Positions 3,370-37,705 of a stretch of DNA of 64,000 nt are shown here, in pieces. Each line of letters opens with the position of its first letter. Position 1 is the stretch's first letter. The notes beneath the pieces were generated by a model, which saw only the letters and a list, made by a program, of their open reading frames with translations, did not search any database and had not been told where the DNA came from. The DNA lies in contig CBDBHB010000008.1 of assembly GCA_965205505.1 (NCBI GenBank), positions 64,001-128,000 on the forward strand, in the 5' to 3' direction. Source of the stretch: Acidobacteriota bacterium. GTDB lineage: Bacteria; Acidobacteriota; UBA890; WLXD01. Made by a program: the position numbers and the translations under genes.

Positions 3370-4032
3370 CAGGGTTGATCTCTACTTCGACTTCGTCTCT
3401 CCATATTCGTATCTGTTGCTGGCACAGGCTGCCGAGTTCGGCGAACACCATGGCGTGGAATGGCGGCTACAGCCAGTCGTGTATGGTGCCCTGGTCAACC
3501 ACACTGGCCTGGTCGGCCCGATTGAGGTTGAAGTCAAGCGACAGTACACCTTTGCCGACATACGACGTAGCGCAGCGCTACTCGGGATTCCGTTGGTCGG
3601 CCCTCCGACGCACCCCTTTCGATCATCGAGGCGTTGCGAGCCGTGTGCCTGTATGCCGCGGACCCGCATTGCCTGGACTTGTCGACTGCCTTGGCCGACG
3701 CGTGGTGGGGTGCCGGCCGCGACCTCGCCGACCTCGGTGCGCTGGCAGACGTTGTTGCAGAAACCGGCCTCGACACCAGCAACCTGGCGGCGCGACTGTC
3801 CGCCACCGAGACGAAGAATCGGTTGCGAGAATCGACCTCACAAGCTATCGAGCGAGGCGTCTTCGGGGTGCCTACCTGTCGCCTCGGCGATGAGCTGTTC
3901 TGGGGCCATGATCGCCTACCGCACCTTGCCGCGCGGATCGCCGGTAAGATCCCGGACCCGCTCGCGGAACTCGAACAATTACTCGAGCGCCCGCGAGGCG
4001 CCGAACGCAGGCCCGGCAAGACGGGACGCTAG
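3359..4032 (+). CDS. 2-hydroxychromene-2-carboxylate isomerase / GST-kappa (DsbA-like) protein; frameshift near 3623
   Basis: MTSSRVDLYFDFVSPYSYL...KRQYTFADIRR...HPFRS, then the other frame continues IEALRAV...AIERGVFGVPT...ELFWGHDRL; one base appears to be missing. Confidence 0.8.
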
Positions 4033-4307
4033 TGCTCCTGATCATAAGTACGGTGACGTTTGCAGGAGCGAGATGCGGGCGAGATCAAGGAAGGGTGAGG
4101 AAGGCGATGCCTTAGCCATCCTCGACGAGCCCTGACGCCGAGATCGCCCGCCTATCGCTCCTGCCCTCCGGGTGGCCGCGGGACCGGCCACCTTGGGCGT
4201 CGCGGCGTCTCGACGATACACCCAGCATCGCCCTCGTCGCCGCTCCTACAATTCGCCCCGGTCGCGCGCGCCACAAACGTCACCGTACTTATGATCAGGA
4301 GCACTAG
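4029..4307. mobile_element. 279-bp MITE-like element (type A ends) with two inverted hairpin modules
   Basis: Perfect 34-bp inverted repeats CTAGTGCTCCTGATCATAAGTACGGTGACGTTTG at 4029-4062 and 4274-4307; no credible coding capacity; internal hairpins 4062-4164 and 4172-4274. Confidence 0.85.
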
Positions 4308-4351
4308 TGGCCTGTAACAGATGATCGTCGCTTATTGTGGCGAGCGCGATC
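4304..4351 (+). repeat. Truncated type C end of the same element family, sharing the CTAG of the preceding element
   Basis: TAGTGGCCTGTAACAGATGATCGTCGCTTATTGTGGCGAGCGCGATC matches 20198-20244 at 40/47 positions (manual alignment). Confidence 0.75.
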
Positions 4352-5141
4352 AGTCGCCGCGCGACACCGAGTCGATCAGTTCATCGAGCTCCTGCCGACG
4401 ACCGACGAGCTCCGCCAGTAGAGCTTCCTGGCGGCGCGTCAGCTCGTCGAAGATGACCTCGATCTGCAGCAACGGTCCACCCACGGCACGTTGCAACGCC
4501 TCCGCGTCCTTGGCATCGACCACGGCGCGCAATTTCTCGCTCAGGCGCGTGACCAGGGTAAGAGCCTCGACCACATGCTCGAGCGCTTCGCCCATACCCT
4601 GCCAGCGGTGCAGATCGTCGCTGCGCACCTCCGCCGCCGCTGCTCGCTGCTGATCCTGCGTCGTACGCAGCGCCTCGAGGCCCGCCTCGAGCTGCGCTGC
4701 CGCATGCTCTTGGACACGCTCGAGGGCCCCGCCGACCTCCTTACGCAGCGCCACGATGTCGCTTTGCAGATCGGCCAGCGCATGCTCGACCGTACCCTGG
4801 CGCTGGTCGAGCGTCGGCAGTAGATCGCCAATCAGCCAGTTGGCTAGCCAGCCTCGCAAGCCGGCGGACGGAAGCTCCCACCCTGCCCGTTCCGTGGGCC
4901 TCGCCGGCCTCGCAGTGGACGCCATCAGCGGCGCCTGCGCCGCACCTACTTTGTCTTCAGTGACGGGGGGATCGTCGGACGCATCTTCGGCCGACGCCAG
5001 CGCGAAGCGATCGAGCAGAGCGCGCAGGCTGTCGGCGCGAACCTCGAACCGGTGCATGCATTCCAGATACTCCGCCTCGACGGCGACACGCGCAGCCTCC
5101 AGGGCATCAAGCTTGGCGGCAACACGGGGCTCTTCAGCCAT
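4350..5141 (-). CDS. Hypothetical coiled-coil protein
   Basis: 263-aa ORF rich in A/E/L/R with long helical stretches; overlaps the stop of the upstream glycerate kinase gene. Confidence 0.7.
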   Translation of the reverse strand: MAEEPRVAAKLDALEAARVAVEAEYLECMHRFEVRADSLRALLDRFALASAEDASDDPPVTEDKVGAAQAPLMASTARPARPTERAGWELPSAGLRGWLANWLIGDLLPTLDQRQGTVEHALADLQSDIVALRKEVGGALERVQEHAAAQLEAGLEALRTTQDQQRAAAAEVRSDDLHRWQGMGEALEHVVEALTLVTRLSEKLRAVVDAKDAEALQRAVGGPLLQIEVIFDELTRRQEALLAELVGRRQELDELIDSVSRGD

Positions 5142-20193: not shown

Positions 20194-20196
20194 CAG

Positions 20197-20366
20197 TTAG
20201 TGTCCTGTAACAGAGGTTCGTTGCATATTGTGGCGCGCGCGACCGAGGCGGATCCAAGGAGGCCCGACGACGGCGATGCCATGCGTATCGCAGAGGCGGG
20301 CCGACGCCGGAGGCGGCCGGTCGCGCTCCCCACAAACGTCACCGTACTTATGATCAGGAGCACTAG
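20197..20366 (+). mobile_element. 170-bp monomeric member of the CTAG element family (type C end, one hairpin module, type A end)
   Basis: 20330-20371 is identical over 42 nt to 4271-4312; the left end matches 4305-4351; the internal hairpin 20230-20333 matches the module consensus. Confidence 0.82.
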
Positions 20367-20412
20367 TGGCCCGAGCTGTCTTCGGCGCAGCATCGCCGGC
20401 GAGTCGCGTCGA

Positions 20413-33838: not shown

Positions 33839-35099
33839 GGGCGGCCGCCTGATCGACCCGACGAATGGCGTAGATACGGTCGGCGACTTGCTCGTCGTCG
33901 ACGGCGTCATCGAGAAGACGGGAACCAAGATCGACGCTACCGCCGCCGAGACGATCGAGTGCGGTGGCATGATTGTCGCTCCCGGTTTCGTTGACATGCA
34001 CGTTCACCTTCGAGAGCCGGGCTTCGAGCACAAGGAGACGATCGCCACGGGGACCATGGCAGCCGCTGCCGGCGGTTTTACCGCTGTCGCCTGCATGCCC
34101 AACACCAGGCCGGTGAACGACCACCGCGCGGTGACGGAGTTCATCGTCGAGCGGGCCAACCTCGAGGGGCACGTCCGGGTCCATCCGATCGGAGCAGTGA
34201 GCATCGATCAAGCCGGCGAGGCGTTGGCGGAGATTGGCGAACTAGTCGCAGCGGGCTGCGTGGCCGTCTCCGACGACGGGTATCCGGTGGCCACCGCACA
34301 GCTCATGCGCAAGGCGCTCGAGTACAGCCGTATGTTCGATATCCCGGTGATCGATCACTGTGAGGAGCGCTCGATGACCACCCGGTCTGTGATGCATGAG
34401 GGTGCGGTTTCTACCGCCCTGGGGATGCGTGGCTGGCCGGCGGCCGCCGAAGAGATCATCGTCGCCCGCGATCTATTGCTGGCCGAGGCGACCGGTGGAC
34501 GGCTGCACCTGGCACATCTTTCTACAGCCGGATCCATGCGACTCGTGCGCGACGCCAAGGAACGCGGCGTCGACGTAACGTGCGAGGTAATGACGCACCA
34601 TTTCTCGCTCACCGACGAGGCCGTGCGTGGCTTCGACACCAACACCAAGATGAACCCGCCGCTGCGCGCCGAGTCGGACCGTCAGGCGCTGCTCGAGGCG
34701 ATCGGCAACGGCACGGTCGACGCCATCGCCACCGACCACGCTCCGCATCATCGAGACGAAAAGCTGCTGGAATACGACCAGGCGCCGTTTGGCATCGTCG
34801 GCCTCGAGACTGCGATCCCACTCGCTTGCACTCACCTGCTGCGTACCGATGTCGTCGACGTCGCCCGGCTCGTGGAGCTCATGTCGGTCAACCCGAGCAG
34901 GATTCTCGGAATCGACGGCGGGACCCTGACCACCGGGGCGCCAGCCCACCTCACCGTCATCGATCCAGAACGCCAAGCAACGATCGACGCTTCGGCGTTT
35001 CACAGCAAGTCCCGAAACACCCCCTTCGATGAACAGACCCTCTACGGCTGGCCCATGCTGACCGTCGTCGACGGACAGATTGCCTGGCGTCGAACGTGA
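33819..35099 (+). CDS. pyrC: Dihydroorotase
   Basis: [47 protein letters not shown]. Confidence 0.95.
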
Positions 35100-35674
35100 G
35101 CCCAGCGCCCAACGTCCGCGCCCTGTTGCTCGACAGCGAAGCCCTGCTGGAGGGTCACTTCGCGCTCTCCTCGGGCCGGCATTCGGACCGCTATCTACAA
35201 TGTGCTCGCGCCCTTCAGCATCCGGACGTCGCCGAGCGACTCGGAGCGGAGCTCGCCCAGCTCTGCCGCGACGAGCTGACAGAGGCCCCCGAAGTGGTTG
35301 TGTCTCCCGCCCTCGGTGGTCTGATCATCGGACATGAAGTGGGGCGAGCCCTGGGGCTGCGAGCGTGCTTCACGGAGCGCGTCGAAGGTGTTATGGAGCT
35401 GCGGCGTGGGTTCGCACTGACCCCTGGCGAGCGTGTGTTGATGGTGGAGGATGTCGTTACGACCGGCCTCAGCAGTCGTGAAACGCTGCAGGTAATCCGC
35501 CAGCACGGCGGCCATCCGGTCGGTGCCGCCTGCATCGCCAATCGCCTCGGGGCCGCGGAGGTCGACGAGCTGCCGCTGCTGGCTCTCTTGATGCTCGATG
35601 CGCCGGTTTGGGAGCCGCATGAGTGTCCGTCATGTGCCGCCGGGAGCACGGCGATCAAGCCAGGGAGTCGCTAG
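35096..35674 (+). CDS. pyrE: Orotate phosphoribosyltransferase
   Basis: LLEGHFALSSGRHS..YLQC, PALGG, LRRGF, VEDVVTTG, CPSC...KPGSR. Confidence 0.93.
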   Translation: MSPAPNVRALLLDSEALLEGHFALSSGRHSDRYLQCARALQHPDVAERLGAELAQLCRDELTEAPEVVVSPALGGLIIGHEVGRALGLRACFTERVEGVMELRRGFALTPGERVLMVEDVVTTGLSSRETLQVIRQHGGHPVGAACIANRLGAAEVDELPLLALLMLDAPVWEPHECPSCAAGSTAIKPGSR

Positions 35675-35949
35675 CAGGCCGTGGTGGAAGTGTGGCGGGT
35701 CTGGTTACGGCGAGTTGGGGCCAGATGCAAGGCGGCCTGACACTGGCGATGCCCTAGCCATCGTCGAGGAAGGCCAACGCCGCAAATGGCCCCAAATCGC
35801 CGTAACCCTTCGGGCGACAGGGGGTTGCGCACGTATGCTGCGTCGTTCCTCGTCAACGATGGGGTAACCATCGCCTCCTCCTCCCTCCTTGCCTCCGCCT
35901 CGCAAGACCCTGTCGCCAGGCCCGCCACACTTCCACCACGGCCTGCTAG
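35671..35949. mobile_element. 279-bp MITE-like element (type B ends) with two inverted hairpin modules
   Basis: 34-bp inverted repeats CTAGCAGGCCGTGGTGGAAGTGTGGCGGG(T/C)CTGG at 35671-35704 and 35916-35949 (1 mismatch); hairpins 35703-35807 and 35813-35917 flank CCCTTCGGG. Confidence 0.85.
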
Positions 35950-35950
35950 G

Positions 35951-37705
35951 TCAGTGACGCCCGAGTTGGCGTTCGATTGAGCGGTGATCGAGCCGCAGCA
36001 TGATCGGACGCCCGTGTGGACAGCGGGTCGGCGACTCACACTCTCCAAGCTGAGAAATCAGGCTCGCCATGACCTCCCGTGTCAGTGGCTGATTCGCCTT
36101 GACAGCCGCGTGACACGCGATCGAAGCGGCAACCTGATTCTGGATCTGTTCAGCCGCTTCGCCGCCACGCTCATCGGCCAACGACGCGAGCAGGGCGCGC
36201 AGCGTCGGCGCACCGCGCCGCGCCCCCAACACCTCCGGAACAGTGCGCAGTGTCCAGGTTTGTCCCCCGAACGGCTCGATCTCGAAACCGAACGTGGCCA
36301 GCAGCTCTTGGTGTTGCTCGGCCGCCGCCACCTCTACGGCAGTCAGCTCCACGGTCTCGGGTACCAGCAATCCTTGCACCGGGACGCGGCGACGTCGACG
36401 TTGCTCCAGCACCTGCTCGTAGAGGACCCGCTCGTGCGCCACGTGCTGATCGATGATCAGCAGCCCGTCGTCGTCGACGGCGAGGATGTACGTGTTGGCG
36501 TACTGCGCGATCGCCTGGACGGCGCCGGGGGTGCCCCCAATCGGTGCTGCGACCTGGCTTTCGCGGATATCCCCTCCGATCCCCGAGCCACCGATCGACA
36601 CCCAGTCGCGCAGGGGCAGGCTGGGCGCCCACGGCGCGCGCACTGGGATTCCCGAGGTACCGTCAGGGGCATCTCGAACCACCCCGTCGGACATCGGCTG
36701 TGGCCATGCGCTCGGTGGCGGCAGCCGACTCGCGAGCGACGTCGCCACGGCTCGCCGCAGCACCGCGAAGACGCGGCCCGGCTCGACGAAGCGCACCTCG
36801 GCCTTGCGCGGATGCACGTTCACGTCTACCTCGGCGGGATCGAGTGCAAGAAACAACACCGCCACCGGGAACCGCCGGCGTTCCAGCAGCGAATCGAAGC
36901 CCGACACGACCGCATGTGCCAGGCGACCATCGCTGACCACCCTGCCGTTCACGAACAGGTGGATGTGGCGCCGGTTGGATCGCGTATGCTCCGGGCTCGT
37001 CACGCCTCCGACCACACGTATTTCGCTGCCGCCCTCGACCAGCACCCAGCACTCGGCGACCGCCGCGCCGAGCACCTGATGGATGCGTTCGTCGAGCGCC
37101 GCGACCGGAGGAGCCACGAGGCGCTCGCGGCCGTCTACGGAGAGCGTCAGACCGATGTCCGGCCGCAACAACGCGAAGTCTTCGACCACCGCAGCAACGT
37201 GCCCGGTCTCGGTGGCGTCGGTACGCAGGTGCTTTAGCCGCGCCGGCGTGTTGTAGAAGAGTTCGTGCACGCGCAGACGCGTGCCGCGCGGGCCTACGGA
37301 CGTGCGTACGCTCGGCCTTTCACGCTCTCCGACGCGAATCTCGGCACCAACCCCCTCGCCTGTGCCGGTATGCATCTCGACGCGAGCCACCGCGGCAATG
37401 CTGGCGAGAGCCTCGCCGCGGAAGCCGAGCGTGCGTATGTCGTCGAGATCCTCGACCGTCGCGATCTTGCTCGTCGCGTGTTGCCGGAACGCCAAGACCG
37501 CATCCTCGGACGTCATCCCGTGGCCGTCGTCGTCAACTTCAATCAGCCGCCGGCCGCCGGCCTCGATACGAACATCGATGCGGGAGGCACCCGCATCGAG
37601 AGCGTTCTCGATCAACTCCTTGACGACAGAGGCGGGGCGCTCGACGACCTCCCCTGCCGCGATGCGATCGATGACGGCACCATCGAGCATGTGAATGGCG
37701 TTCAT
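35951..37705 (-). CDS. mutL: DNA mismatch repair endonuclease MutL
   Basis: IAAGEVVERPASVVKELIEN, HATSK, GFRGEAL, DVNVHP, DQHVAHE, ACH, CPHGRP. Confidence 0.96.
   Translation of the reverse strand: MNAIHMLDGAVIDRIAAGEVVERPASVVKELIENALDAGASRIDVRIEAGGRRLIEVDDDGHGMTSEDAVLAFRQHATSKIATVEDLDDIRTLGFRGEALASIAAVARVEMHTGTGEGVGAEIRVGERERPSVRTSVGPRGTRLRVHELFYNTPARLKHLRTDATETGHVAAVVEDFALLRPDIGLTLSVDGRERLVAPPVAALDERIHQVLGAAVAECWVLVEGGSEIRVVGGVTSPEHTRSNRRHIHLFVNGRVVSDGRLAHAVVSGFDSLLERRRFPVAVLFLALDPAEVDVNVHPRKAEVRFVEPGRVFAVLRRAVATSLASRLPPPSAWPQPMSDGVVRDAPDGTSGIPVRAPWAPSLPLRDWVSIGGSGIGGDIRESQVAAPIGGTPGAVQAIAQYANTYILAVDDDGLLIIDQHVAHERVLYEQVLEQRRRRRVPVQGLLVPETVELTAVEVAAAEQHQELLATFGFEIEPFGGQTWTLRTVPEVLGARRGAPTLRALLASLADERGGEAAEQIQNQVAASIACHAAVKANQPLTREVMASLISQLGECESPTRCPHGRPIMLRLDHRSIERQLGRH

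Follow-up and report, generated by a model that had tools for sequence, protein, structure and literature searches.

What is a covarying, purine-rich hairpin doing five times over in 64,000 nucleotides of an acidobacterial genome, and what kind of molecule does it form? The window, by which we mean the whole 64,000-nucleotide stretch analyzed (G000:C8:64001-128000), comes from a source genome, G000, of 5.98 Mb, 64% G+C and 96.29% completeness. The original prediction was that five units, U1-U5, represent a structured RNA motif with compensatory helices and purine-rich, possibly kink-turn-like internal loops. When the window was re-read, all five units were present, with the letters as they had been given. 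A pattern for the core that tolerates at most one mismatch finds U1-U4 in the window, with 0 matches expected from 100 dinucleotide shuffles, and U5, which is one base shorter than the others, was recovered by a covariance model (Table 1). The inner 5-bp helix is paired in U1-U4 and unpaired in U5, as described. The strand-specific fold at the center of the RNA-motif reading stood; the kink-turn did not, and the membership of the hairpins in a mobile element had been overlooked.

The hairpins are modules of a mobile repeat

Inspection of the window sequence revealed that 35671-35949 is a 279-bp near-palindrome with CTAG at each end, whose outer inverted arms (47 nt, 85% complementarity) enclose two inner hairpins. 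It belongs to a family of non-coding mobile repeats bounded by CTAG (MITEs), so that the hairpin is a module of a known kind of element, not a free-standing RNA gene. In module A the core runs AGG-C, 5-bp helix, GA.C.AC-N, GG with capping helix and 7-nt loop, TC, GA.G.GA, helix and A-ACG. Both neighboring ORFs end at the element: the left one stops within its CTAG, and the stop of ORF 35951-37705 (-) lies one base beyond the right CTAG. We read the ORFs listed across 35671-35949 as by-products of the palindrome. Folded whole, the element takes the shape of a Y: its base is made by pairing of the terminal repeats, arm A folds well and the complement of arm B folds poorly; the z-score of this fold is -13.3 as RNA and -12.5 as DNA. 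An intrinsic terminator (GC-rich hairpin and T run) was ruled out, as 35400-36200 holds 0 terminator-like sites; promoter-like sites in this interval also number 0.

Table 1. Positions in the window of the studied element, its parts and the two further elements that carry the hairpin
Feature	Position	Strand	Remarks
Complete two-hairpin MITE copy, A-B type	35671-35949	.	Between convergent ORFs 35096-35674 (+) and 35951-37705 (-)
Left CTAG, supplying the TAG stop of ORF 35096-35674	35671-35674	+	
Left terminal inverted repeat (TIR), TIR1 type, ~34 nt, ends TCTGG	35671-35704	+	
Hairpin module A (U4)	35703-35807	+	Outer stem arms 35703-35728 and 35782-35807
Module A conserved core	35730-35779	+	Covariance model, 85.7 bits
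Central mini-hairpin CCC-TTC-GGG between modules A and B	35806-35814	.	
Hairpin module B (U5)	35813-35917	-	Outer stem arms 35813-35829 and 35901-35917
Module B core, variant class with further purine-purine blocks in place of inner helix	35841-35889	-	Covariance model, 51.8 bits
Right terminal inverted repeat, ends in CTAG	35916-35949	-	
Second two-hairpin MITE, C-D type, TIR2 ends	4030-4308	.	U1 core 4088-4137 (+), U2 core 4198-4247 (-)
One-hairpin element (U3)	20196-20367	.	Core 20257-20306 (+); TIR3-like left end, TIR2-like right end

Elsewhere in the window, a truncated TIR3-type end (4305-4355) follows directly on the right CTAG of the C-D element, with this CTAG in common.

Architecture of the core

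The conserved core occupies ~50 nt of each ~105-nt module, on one strand only. On the motif strand, AGG and A/C are followed by a 5-bp helix, G-A-S-G-A with one extra base, G-G and a capping helix of 5 bp closed by a 7-nt loop; the 3′ half continues with T-C, G-A-S′-G-A, the return strand of the 5-bp helix, G/A and A-C-G. Set antiparallel, the two halves form three tandem G·A/A·G blocks, consisting of AGG[A] opposite [G]ACG and two GA pairs that flank S-S′, and the three blocks are parted by Watson-Crick pairs. Judged by their letters, the G·A oppositions are probably sheared pairs.

How these positions vary is informative. Among 331 genomic units, S-S′, inside the purine loop, is CG in 185 and GC in 117, making it a covarying Watson-Crick pair. 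The non-Watson-Crick position beside the inner helix is A..G in 173 units, C..A in 146 and something else in 12, and a change from A·G to C·A is tolerated within one isosteric class of non-Watson-Crick pairs. Under the capping helix the opposition is G·T in 267 units, A-T in 38 and G-C in 22, the wobble being mostly kept. In a recurrent variant class, represented by module B and by L008, L018, L033 and L072 (loci are numbered with L, genomes with G), the GA-N-GA periodicity continues instead of the inner helix. Matches made with the model, free of the pattern, include L082, in which the five capping pairs are kept and three of them swapped with compensation, and the L084 group, with a six-pair capping helix of different sequence; both retain the flanking GG..TC and the GA blocks. 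The capping helices of L082 and the L084 group are ATG-free, which rules out GGCGATG as a Shine-Dalgarno-plus-ATG or mini-ORF.

The proposed kink-turn failed on inspection of the alignment described below (A1): there is no 3-nt bulge in the right strand order, and the single unpaired base between GA block and capping helix (column 29) lies on the wrong strand. We also looked by eye for loop-loop kissing of the two modules and found no consistent complementarity.

The fold covaries and is carried by one strand

Covariation was scored over 24 pairs. Alignment A1 (38 sequences) combines units of this window with 33 loci from other genomes. They were collected with a pattern that fixes AGG, GA, GGCGATG, YATCS, GASG and ACG, so that invariance there is built in, and that leaves the helices and the 5′ member of the S-S′ pair free. 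In A1, 87.1% of cells are paired (69.2% after shuffling), 155 cells are changed on both sides (shuffled, 62) and the covariation score is 0.444 (shuffled, 0.160), a value that 0 of 500 shuffles reach; when partners were slid by 1-3 columns, the score fell to 0.08-0.13. Alignment A2, whose 75 sequences were fitted to the covariance model and are hence biased towards it, has 90.5% of cells paired versus 68.5%, 342 double-changed cells versus 123 and a score of 0.502 versus 0.150, again with 0 of 500 shuffles as high, and 20 of the 24 pairs change on both sides. The compensatory helices claimed for five units therefore held in larger alignments. Shuffle controls ignore the relatedness of the copies, whereas slid controls keep it; for A1 and A2 together the slid controls score 0.06-0.13 against 0.44-0.50.

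One strand carries the fold. With the structure held fixed, G·T oppositions outnumber A·C both in the outer stem (42 versus 9) and in the inner helix (5 versus 1), and in the 331 genomic units the counts are 196 versus 56 and 55 versus 16, respectively; this supports the claim that the hairpin is not a plain palindrome. These counts supersede the total of G·T in folds of the two strands (110 versus 81), which is an unclean test. Among 40 representatives, the motif strand also folds better than its complement in 36 under RNA parameters (mean -8.3 kcal/mol) and in 32 under DNA parameters (-2.1). The folded molecule could be RNA or single-stranded DNA, as both fit the same sequence data.

At the gathering threshold of Rfam 15, only 3 tRNAs pass in the whole window. 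When hits with E up to 10 were admitted for 35600-36000, the best was MIR1437, at 33.7 bits versus a threshold of 168, and no Rfam family was matched by the motif. A full-text literature search found no description of the motif or the MITE. The fold is real, strand-specific, conserved across phyla and uncatalogued.

Copies and families in the source genome

A profile built from 38 diverse units has 353 matches in G000, of which 331 span the core. Most of these modules (250 of 331) lie in 125 head-to-head pairs, defined as a + unit and then a - unit within 130 bp; tail-to-tail pairs within 130 bp number 0 in this genome. The modules fall into about a dozen sub-families, which are combined into composites with at least three kinds of terminal repeat, and full-length copies of the A-B type number 52. 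In all families of the genome the order is terminal repeat, hairpin, CCC-N3-GGG mini-hairpin, inverted hairpin and terminal repeat, with the hairpin beginning immediately past the terminal repeat. CTAG precedes 234 of 319 TIR1 matches.

Several smaller features of these copies deserve mention. The spacer between modules is CCC-TNC-GGG in all families (CCC-GNA-GGG on the other strand), and all four bases occur in the middle. About 10 copies are nested, a TIR1-type element sitting at a CTAG within the capping-helix loop of another family's hairpin, and this composite has itself been copied. A few mini-palindromes of ~50 bp consist of two TIR1 ends alone, without hairpins; they are far rarer than the hairpin-bearing form. 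In another genome, G004, a one-hairpin relative with ~14 full copies (L133-L148) has a less conserved segment of ~40 nt at the place of the first hairpin, which differs among sub-families and not from copy to copy. In the L035 type the hairpin stands beside the other end with its polarity reversed. A guide-like variable segment in L035-type elements was considered and dropped, as it varies by sub-family and not per copy.

Where do the elements sit? Among 89 two-hairpin elements with CTAG at both ends, 40 close an open frame of 150 codons or more on one side or on both, compared with ~5% per end for control frames. As a result of these stop-codon fusions, the sense module would be the first thing transcribed after many genes.

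Copies turn over while the core is constrained

We examined 40 element sites from two species of the same genus (G074 and G123), of which 24 were resolved against G000 and 16 were unresolvable. Of the resolved sites, 18 are empty in G000, 1 is filled in both genomes and 5 are ambiguous. Empty orthologous sites have a single CTAG where readable. At L114 the empty site is one CTAG, which fits TA duplication, CTAG duplication and insertion beside CTAG alike. With 18 of 24 sites empty and a single one shared, individual copies are not retained for the sake of the host, and such fast turnover makes a locus-specific host role unlikely. At the only site filled in two species (L120 and G000:C9:2720824-2723322) identity is 97.1% (272/280) for the element and 89-93% for the coding flanks, a difference for which gene conversion, re-insertion or constraint may each account.

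The variants that copies share tell of constraint among lineages. The 52 A-B copies have 1.4 shared variants per site in the core, 1.8 in the TIR and 3.6-5.3 in stems and loop; across six families they are 0.141 in the core versus 0.33-0.43. Private variants per site in the A-B copies are 0.31, 0.41 and 0.30-0.33 for core, TIR and stems/loop, with the outer stem at 0.33, and in the six families 0.214, 0.30 and 0.67 for core, stems and loops, figures that are confounded by a profile search favoring intact cores and by a possibly high mutation rate in loops. A lineage-level constraint on the core is clear, and the rarity of shared variants there would be expected equally if the core were needed when the element spreads or if it had an RNA role. 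The hairpin modules are a selected part of the element, not of the host.

The module is widespread in Acidobacteriota

A search with the exact pattern, one genome per species, gave at least 73 loci, from many Acidobacteriota MAGs including Thermoanaerobaculia; among the exact-pattern matches listed are also Gemmatimonadota, Brocadiaceae and one MAG labelled Patescibacteria, whose copy (L048) has AT-rich flanks and an intact core. With the covariance model, at E up to 1e-5, the module was found in 42 of 151 sampled Acidobacteriota genomes and 32 of 105 genera, a count that takes in G000 and the unpublished G054 and for which at most 31 candidates were scored per genome. In low-copy genomes the module again sits in an element of this type, whose terminal repeats differ from those described above, and genomes with 1-9 copies retain the fold. 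The plasmids, phages and viral contigs searched gave no match.

Transposase links

What moves the elements? In sister families, TIR2 and TIR3 can be aligned with the termini of IS630-type (DDE_3) insertion sequences, two in G000 and one in G044, which are themselves without the hairpin. The TIR1 ends of the studied copy resemble neither IS630-type element of G000, and no insertion sequence matching them was found. Three inward-facing pairs among the 319 TIR1 matches, 0.4-5 kb apart, enclose ordinary genes and no transposase, and no module pair in G000 faces inward at 0.5-4 kb. Y1 transposase (PF01797) has 0 matches in G000, the control being positive in 6 of 14 genomes. An IS5/IS1182 origin gained no support: PF05598 (DUF772) has 0 matches, and the lone DDE_Tnp_1 element has unrelated inverted ends.

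In the Acidobacteriota sample, a DDE_3 match is present in 23 of 42 motif-bearing genomes versus 34 of 109 others, a comparison in which relatives are not independent and G054 is included. The other 19 motif-bearing genomes, among them the high-copy, nearly closed G074, G007, G060 and G117, gave no DDE_3 match, and neither did G001-G005. That one core recurs behind unrelated ends, and that insertion sequences with matching ends lack the hairpin, suggests a partner common to many hosts and not one transposase.

What reads the fold?

One possibility, which we tentatively put first, is that the hairpin is a transcribed 3′-end module that keeps insertions harmless. The element lands at CTAG, often the TAG stop of a gene, and would then be transcribed as the start of the 3′ untranslated region; the head-to-head layout would place a sense copy of the motif first in the transcript from either side. 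The reader of the folded RNA might be a host factor with wide conservation: RNA polymerase, an RNase or an exonuclease for which the fold forms a barrier, for example. If insertion were thereby harmless to the neighboring gene, through 3′-end protection or insulation, lineages that keep the fold would go on spreading. The data show the fold, its restriction to one strand, its conservation across phyla, the MITE setting, the stop-codon fusions and mobility; we infer RNA as the acting molecule, its binding by a host factor and the nature of the benefit. The stop-codon fusions in 40 of 89 elements, including the left end of the studied copy, argue for this reading, as do the 125 head-to-head and 0 tail-to-tail pairs and the recurrence of one core behind unrelated ends, together with its presence in 32 of 105 Acidobacteriota genera and in Gemmatimonadota and Brocadiaceae MAGs. 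However, orientation offers it no help. The one-hairpin elements of G004 meet an incoming gene in sense in 4 cases, antisense in 3, both in 1 and neither in 6 (n = 14), and neither the canonical nor the variant module is preferred (6 versus 5 for A-B, 4 versus 8 for C-D and 1 versus 2 for E-J, all small numbers). It is also at odds with the 18 of 24 empty sites, with private mutations that are only mildly rarer in the core (0.214 versus 0.30) and with the lack of any promoter- or terminator-like site in 35400-36200. Two metatranscriptome runs (X2 and X3) contain short contigs like parts of the element, such as one of 177 nt that lies wholly inside it, but these derive from related copies, are strandless, come from libraries that can hold DNA and leave unique flanks uncovered.

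Although we tentatively favor a transcribed 3′-end module, a somewhat less likely alternative is that the fold acts as single-stranded DNA, a cis handle for spread that would form on the lagging-strand template, in a transcription bubble or during transposition. By analogy with REP hairpins, IS200/IS605 ends and attC sites, such a handle could be bound by a mobilizing enzyme or a host DNA factor. Sheared G·A pairs, G·T wobbles and GNA triloops are stable in DNA too. The hairpin abuts the terminal repeat in all G000 families, pair polarity is fixed (125 versus 0) and the core is conserved among lineages as the TIRs are (1.4 and 1.8 shared alleles per site versus 3.6-5.3), all of which would suit a handle. 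Decay and turnover of individual copies, with no orientation bias to host transcription, would suit it as well, and the genomes without a DDE_3 match (G074, G007, G060, G117 and G001-G005) leave room for another mover of TIR1-type elements. Against a handle, inverted repeats with a CTAG at either end make the termini look like those of cut-and-paste DDE elements; TIR2 and TIR3 match the ends of IS630-type elements that have no hairpin, and no Y1 transposase was found in the 96%-complete G000. The L035 type, with its hairpin at the other end and in opposite polarity, speaks against a strict end architecture, and one core behind unrelated ends argues against an element-specific enzyme.

It is also conceivable, if unlikely, that the GA-block hairpin is the handle of a hairpin-reading mobilization system, acting through folded single-stranded DNA or through an RNA cofactor made by the element, that moves TIR1-type CTAG elements in the many genomes where their copy number is high and polymorphic and no IS630 transposase is present. 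If this were true, hairpin-reading mobilization would be a new way to move miniature elements, with a cross-phylum nucleic-acid fold at its center.

Could the transcribed copies instead act jointly in trans, either titrating an RNA-binding protein as a decoy or sponge, or forming a small-RNA pool? A single genome holds 331 modules, the purine-rich core has AGGA- and GAGGA-like words and element-like contigs occur in two RNA libraries (strandless, and of a kind that can hold DNA). We consider this improbable, since selection for a trans benefit would not act on the core of every lineage that propagates, and genomes with 1-9 copies retain the fold.

There is similarly little chance that the fold has no selected function and that covariation reflects common descent together with templated repair within palindromes. 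Palindromes can self-correct by template switching, the copies are related and the shuffle controls ignore this relatedness. However, templated repair would erase the purine-purine mismatches, and the three blocks are kept, with fixed spacing, across phyla. In addition, the slid controls, which keep relatedness, score far below the real pairings, G·T exceeds A·C on one strand, and L048 has retained the core within AT-rich flanks.

Finally, a host cis-regulatory RNA for the neighboring genes, riboswitch-like or an attenuator, can be dismissed almost entirely: the hairpin is structured and adjoins genes, but the neighbors are unrelated, 18 of 24 sites are empty in species of the same genus, the elements lie 3′ of genes and copies number in the hundreds.

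Relation to known repeats

RUP and Nezha are examples of bacterial MITEs derived from IS630/Tc1-mariner elements. The present element resembles this group in being short and non-coding, in having TIRs and a terminal CTAG on either side, in numbering tens of copies per family, in its polymorphic insertions and in that TIR2 and TIR3 of its sister families match the ends of DDE_3 insertion sequences in G000 and G044. It differs in its two long internal hairpins with a covarying cross-phylum core and in a TIR1 without an insertion-sequence match. Correia/NEMIS, ERIC and BOX are MITE-like repeats that are co-transcribed with neighboring genes, and their transcribed hairpins affect mRNA. These repeats are confined to a genus or family and are not known to possess a cross-phylum core like that of the present element, and we know of no description of the GA-block architecture for any of them. 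Integron attC sites and IS200/IS605 ends likewise combine strand-specific hairpins, conserved unpaired or mismatched bases and covarying stems, but neither a cassette array nor a Y1 transposase accompanies the hairpins described here.

REP sequences and REPINs, which depend on RAYT (Y1) transposases, are also imperfect one-strand hairpins in inverted doublets with hundreds of copies (PMC3733652). They measure 20-40 nt compared with ~105 nt for our modules and have a GTAG/CGTC tag that the latter lack; our elements have TIRs with CTAG, and G000 has 0 matches to Y1_Tnp. The TwoAYGGAY RNA motif, found with REP arrays in Pseudomonas, is likewise multi-copy, structured, often in doublets and tied to repeats, and its doublets are mostly divergent (bioRxiv 10.64898/2026.09.22.753630). 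Here doublets are always convergent, sequence and fold differ, and the Rfam scans gave no match to TwoAYGGAY.

MITEs are usually seen as ends plus filler, and what would count as filler in this one is a defined nucleic-acid fold, whose letters hardly change behind unrelated ends in more than a quarter of the sampled Acidobacteriota and in other phyla. The fold must have a reader that these bacteria, or the elements, have in common, and this reader, once found, would explain how the repeats spread or stay harmless at gene ends. The hairpin would add an uncatalogued structured motif to the repertoire of RNA or DNA, and its covariance model separates these repeats from genuine regulatory RNAs in the annotation of soil metagenomes.

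Insertion sequences at the element ends

In G044, a 1.21-kb IS630/DDE_3 element (L163-L169) has at least 24 matches, and 4 of 7 fetched copies directly adjoin a two-hairpin MITE at its CTAG. It seems that new targets for this element arise from the MITE ends. In G000, outside the window, an insertion sequence of ~1.43 kb, assigned by eye to the IS110 family from its ORF, has at least 30 copies (G000:C8:403802-405239 and G000:C7:50315-52008), and its left junction falls in a TIR3-type MITE terminus. By analogy with the IS110 members that target REP sequences, this insertion sequence appears to target MITE ends.
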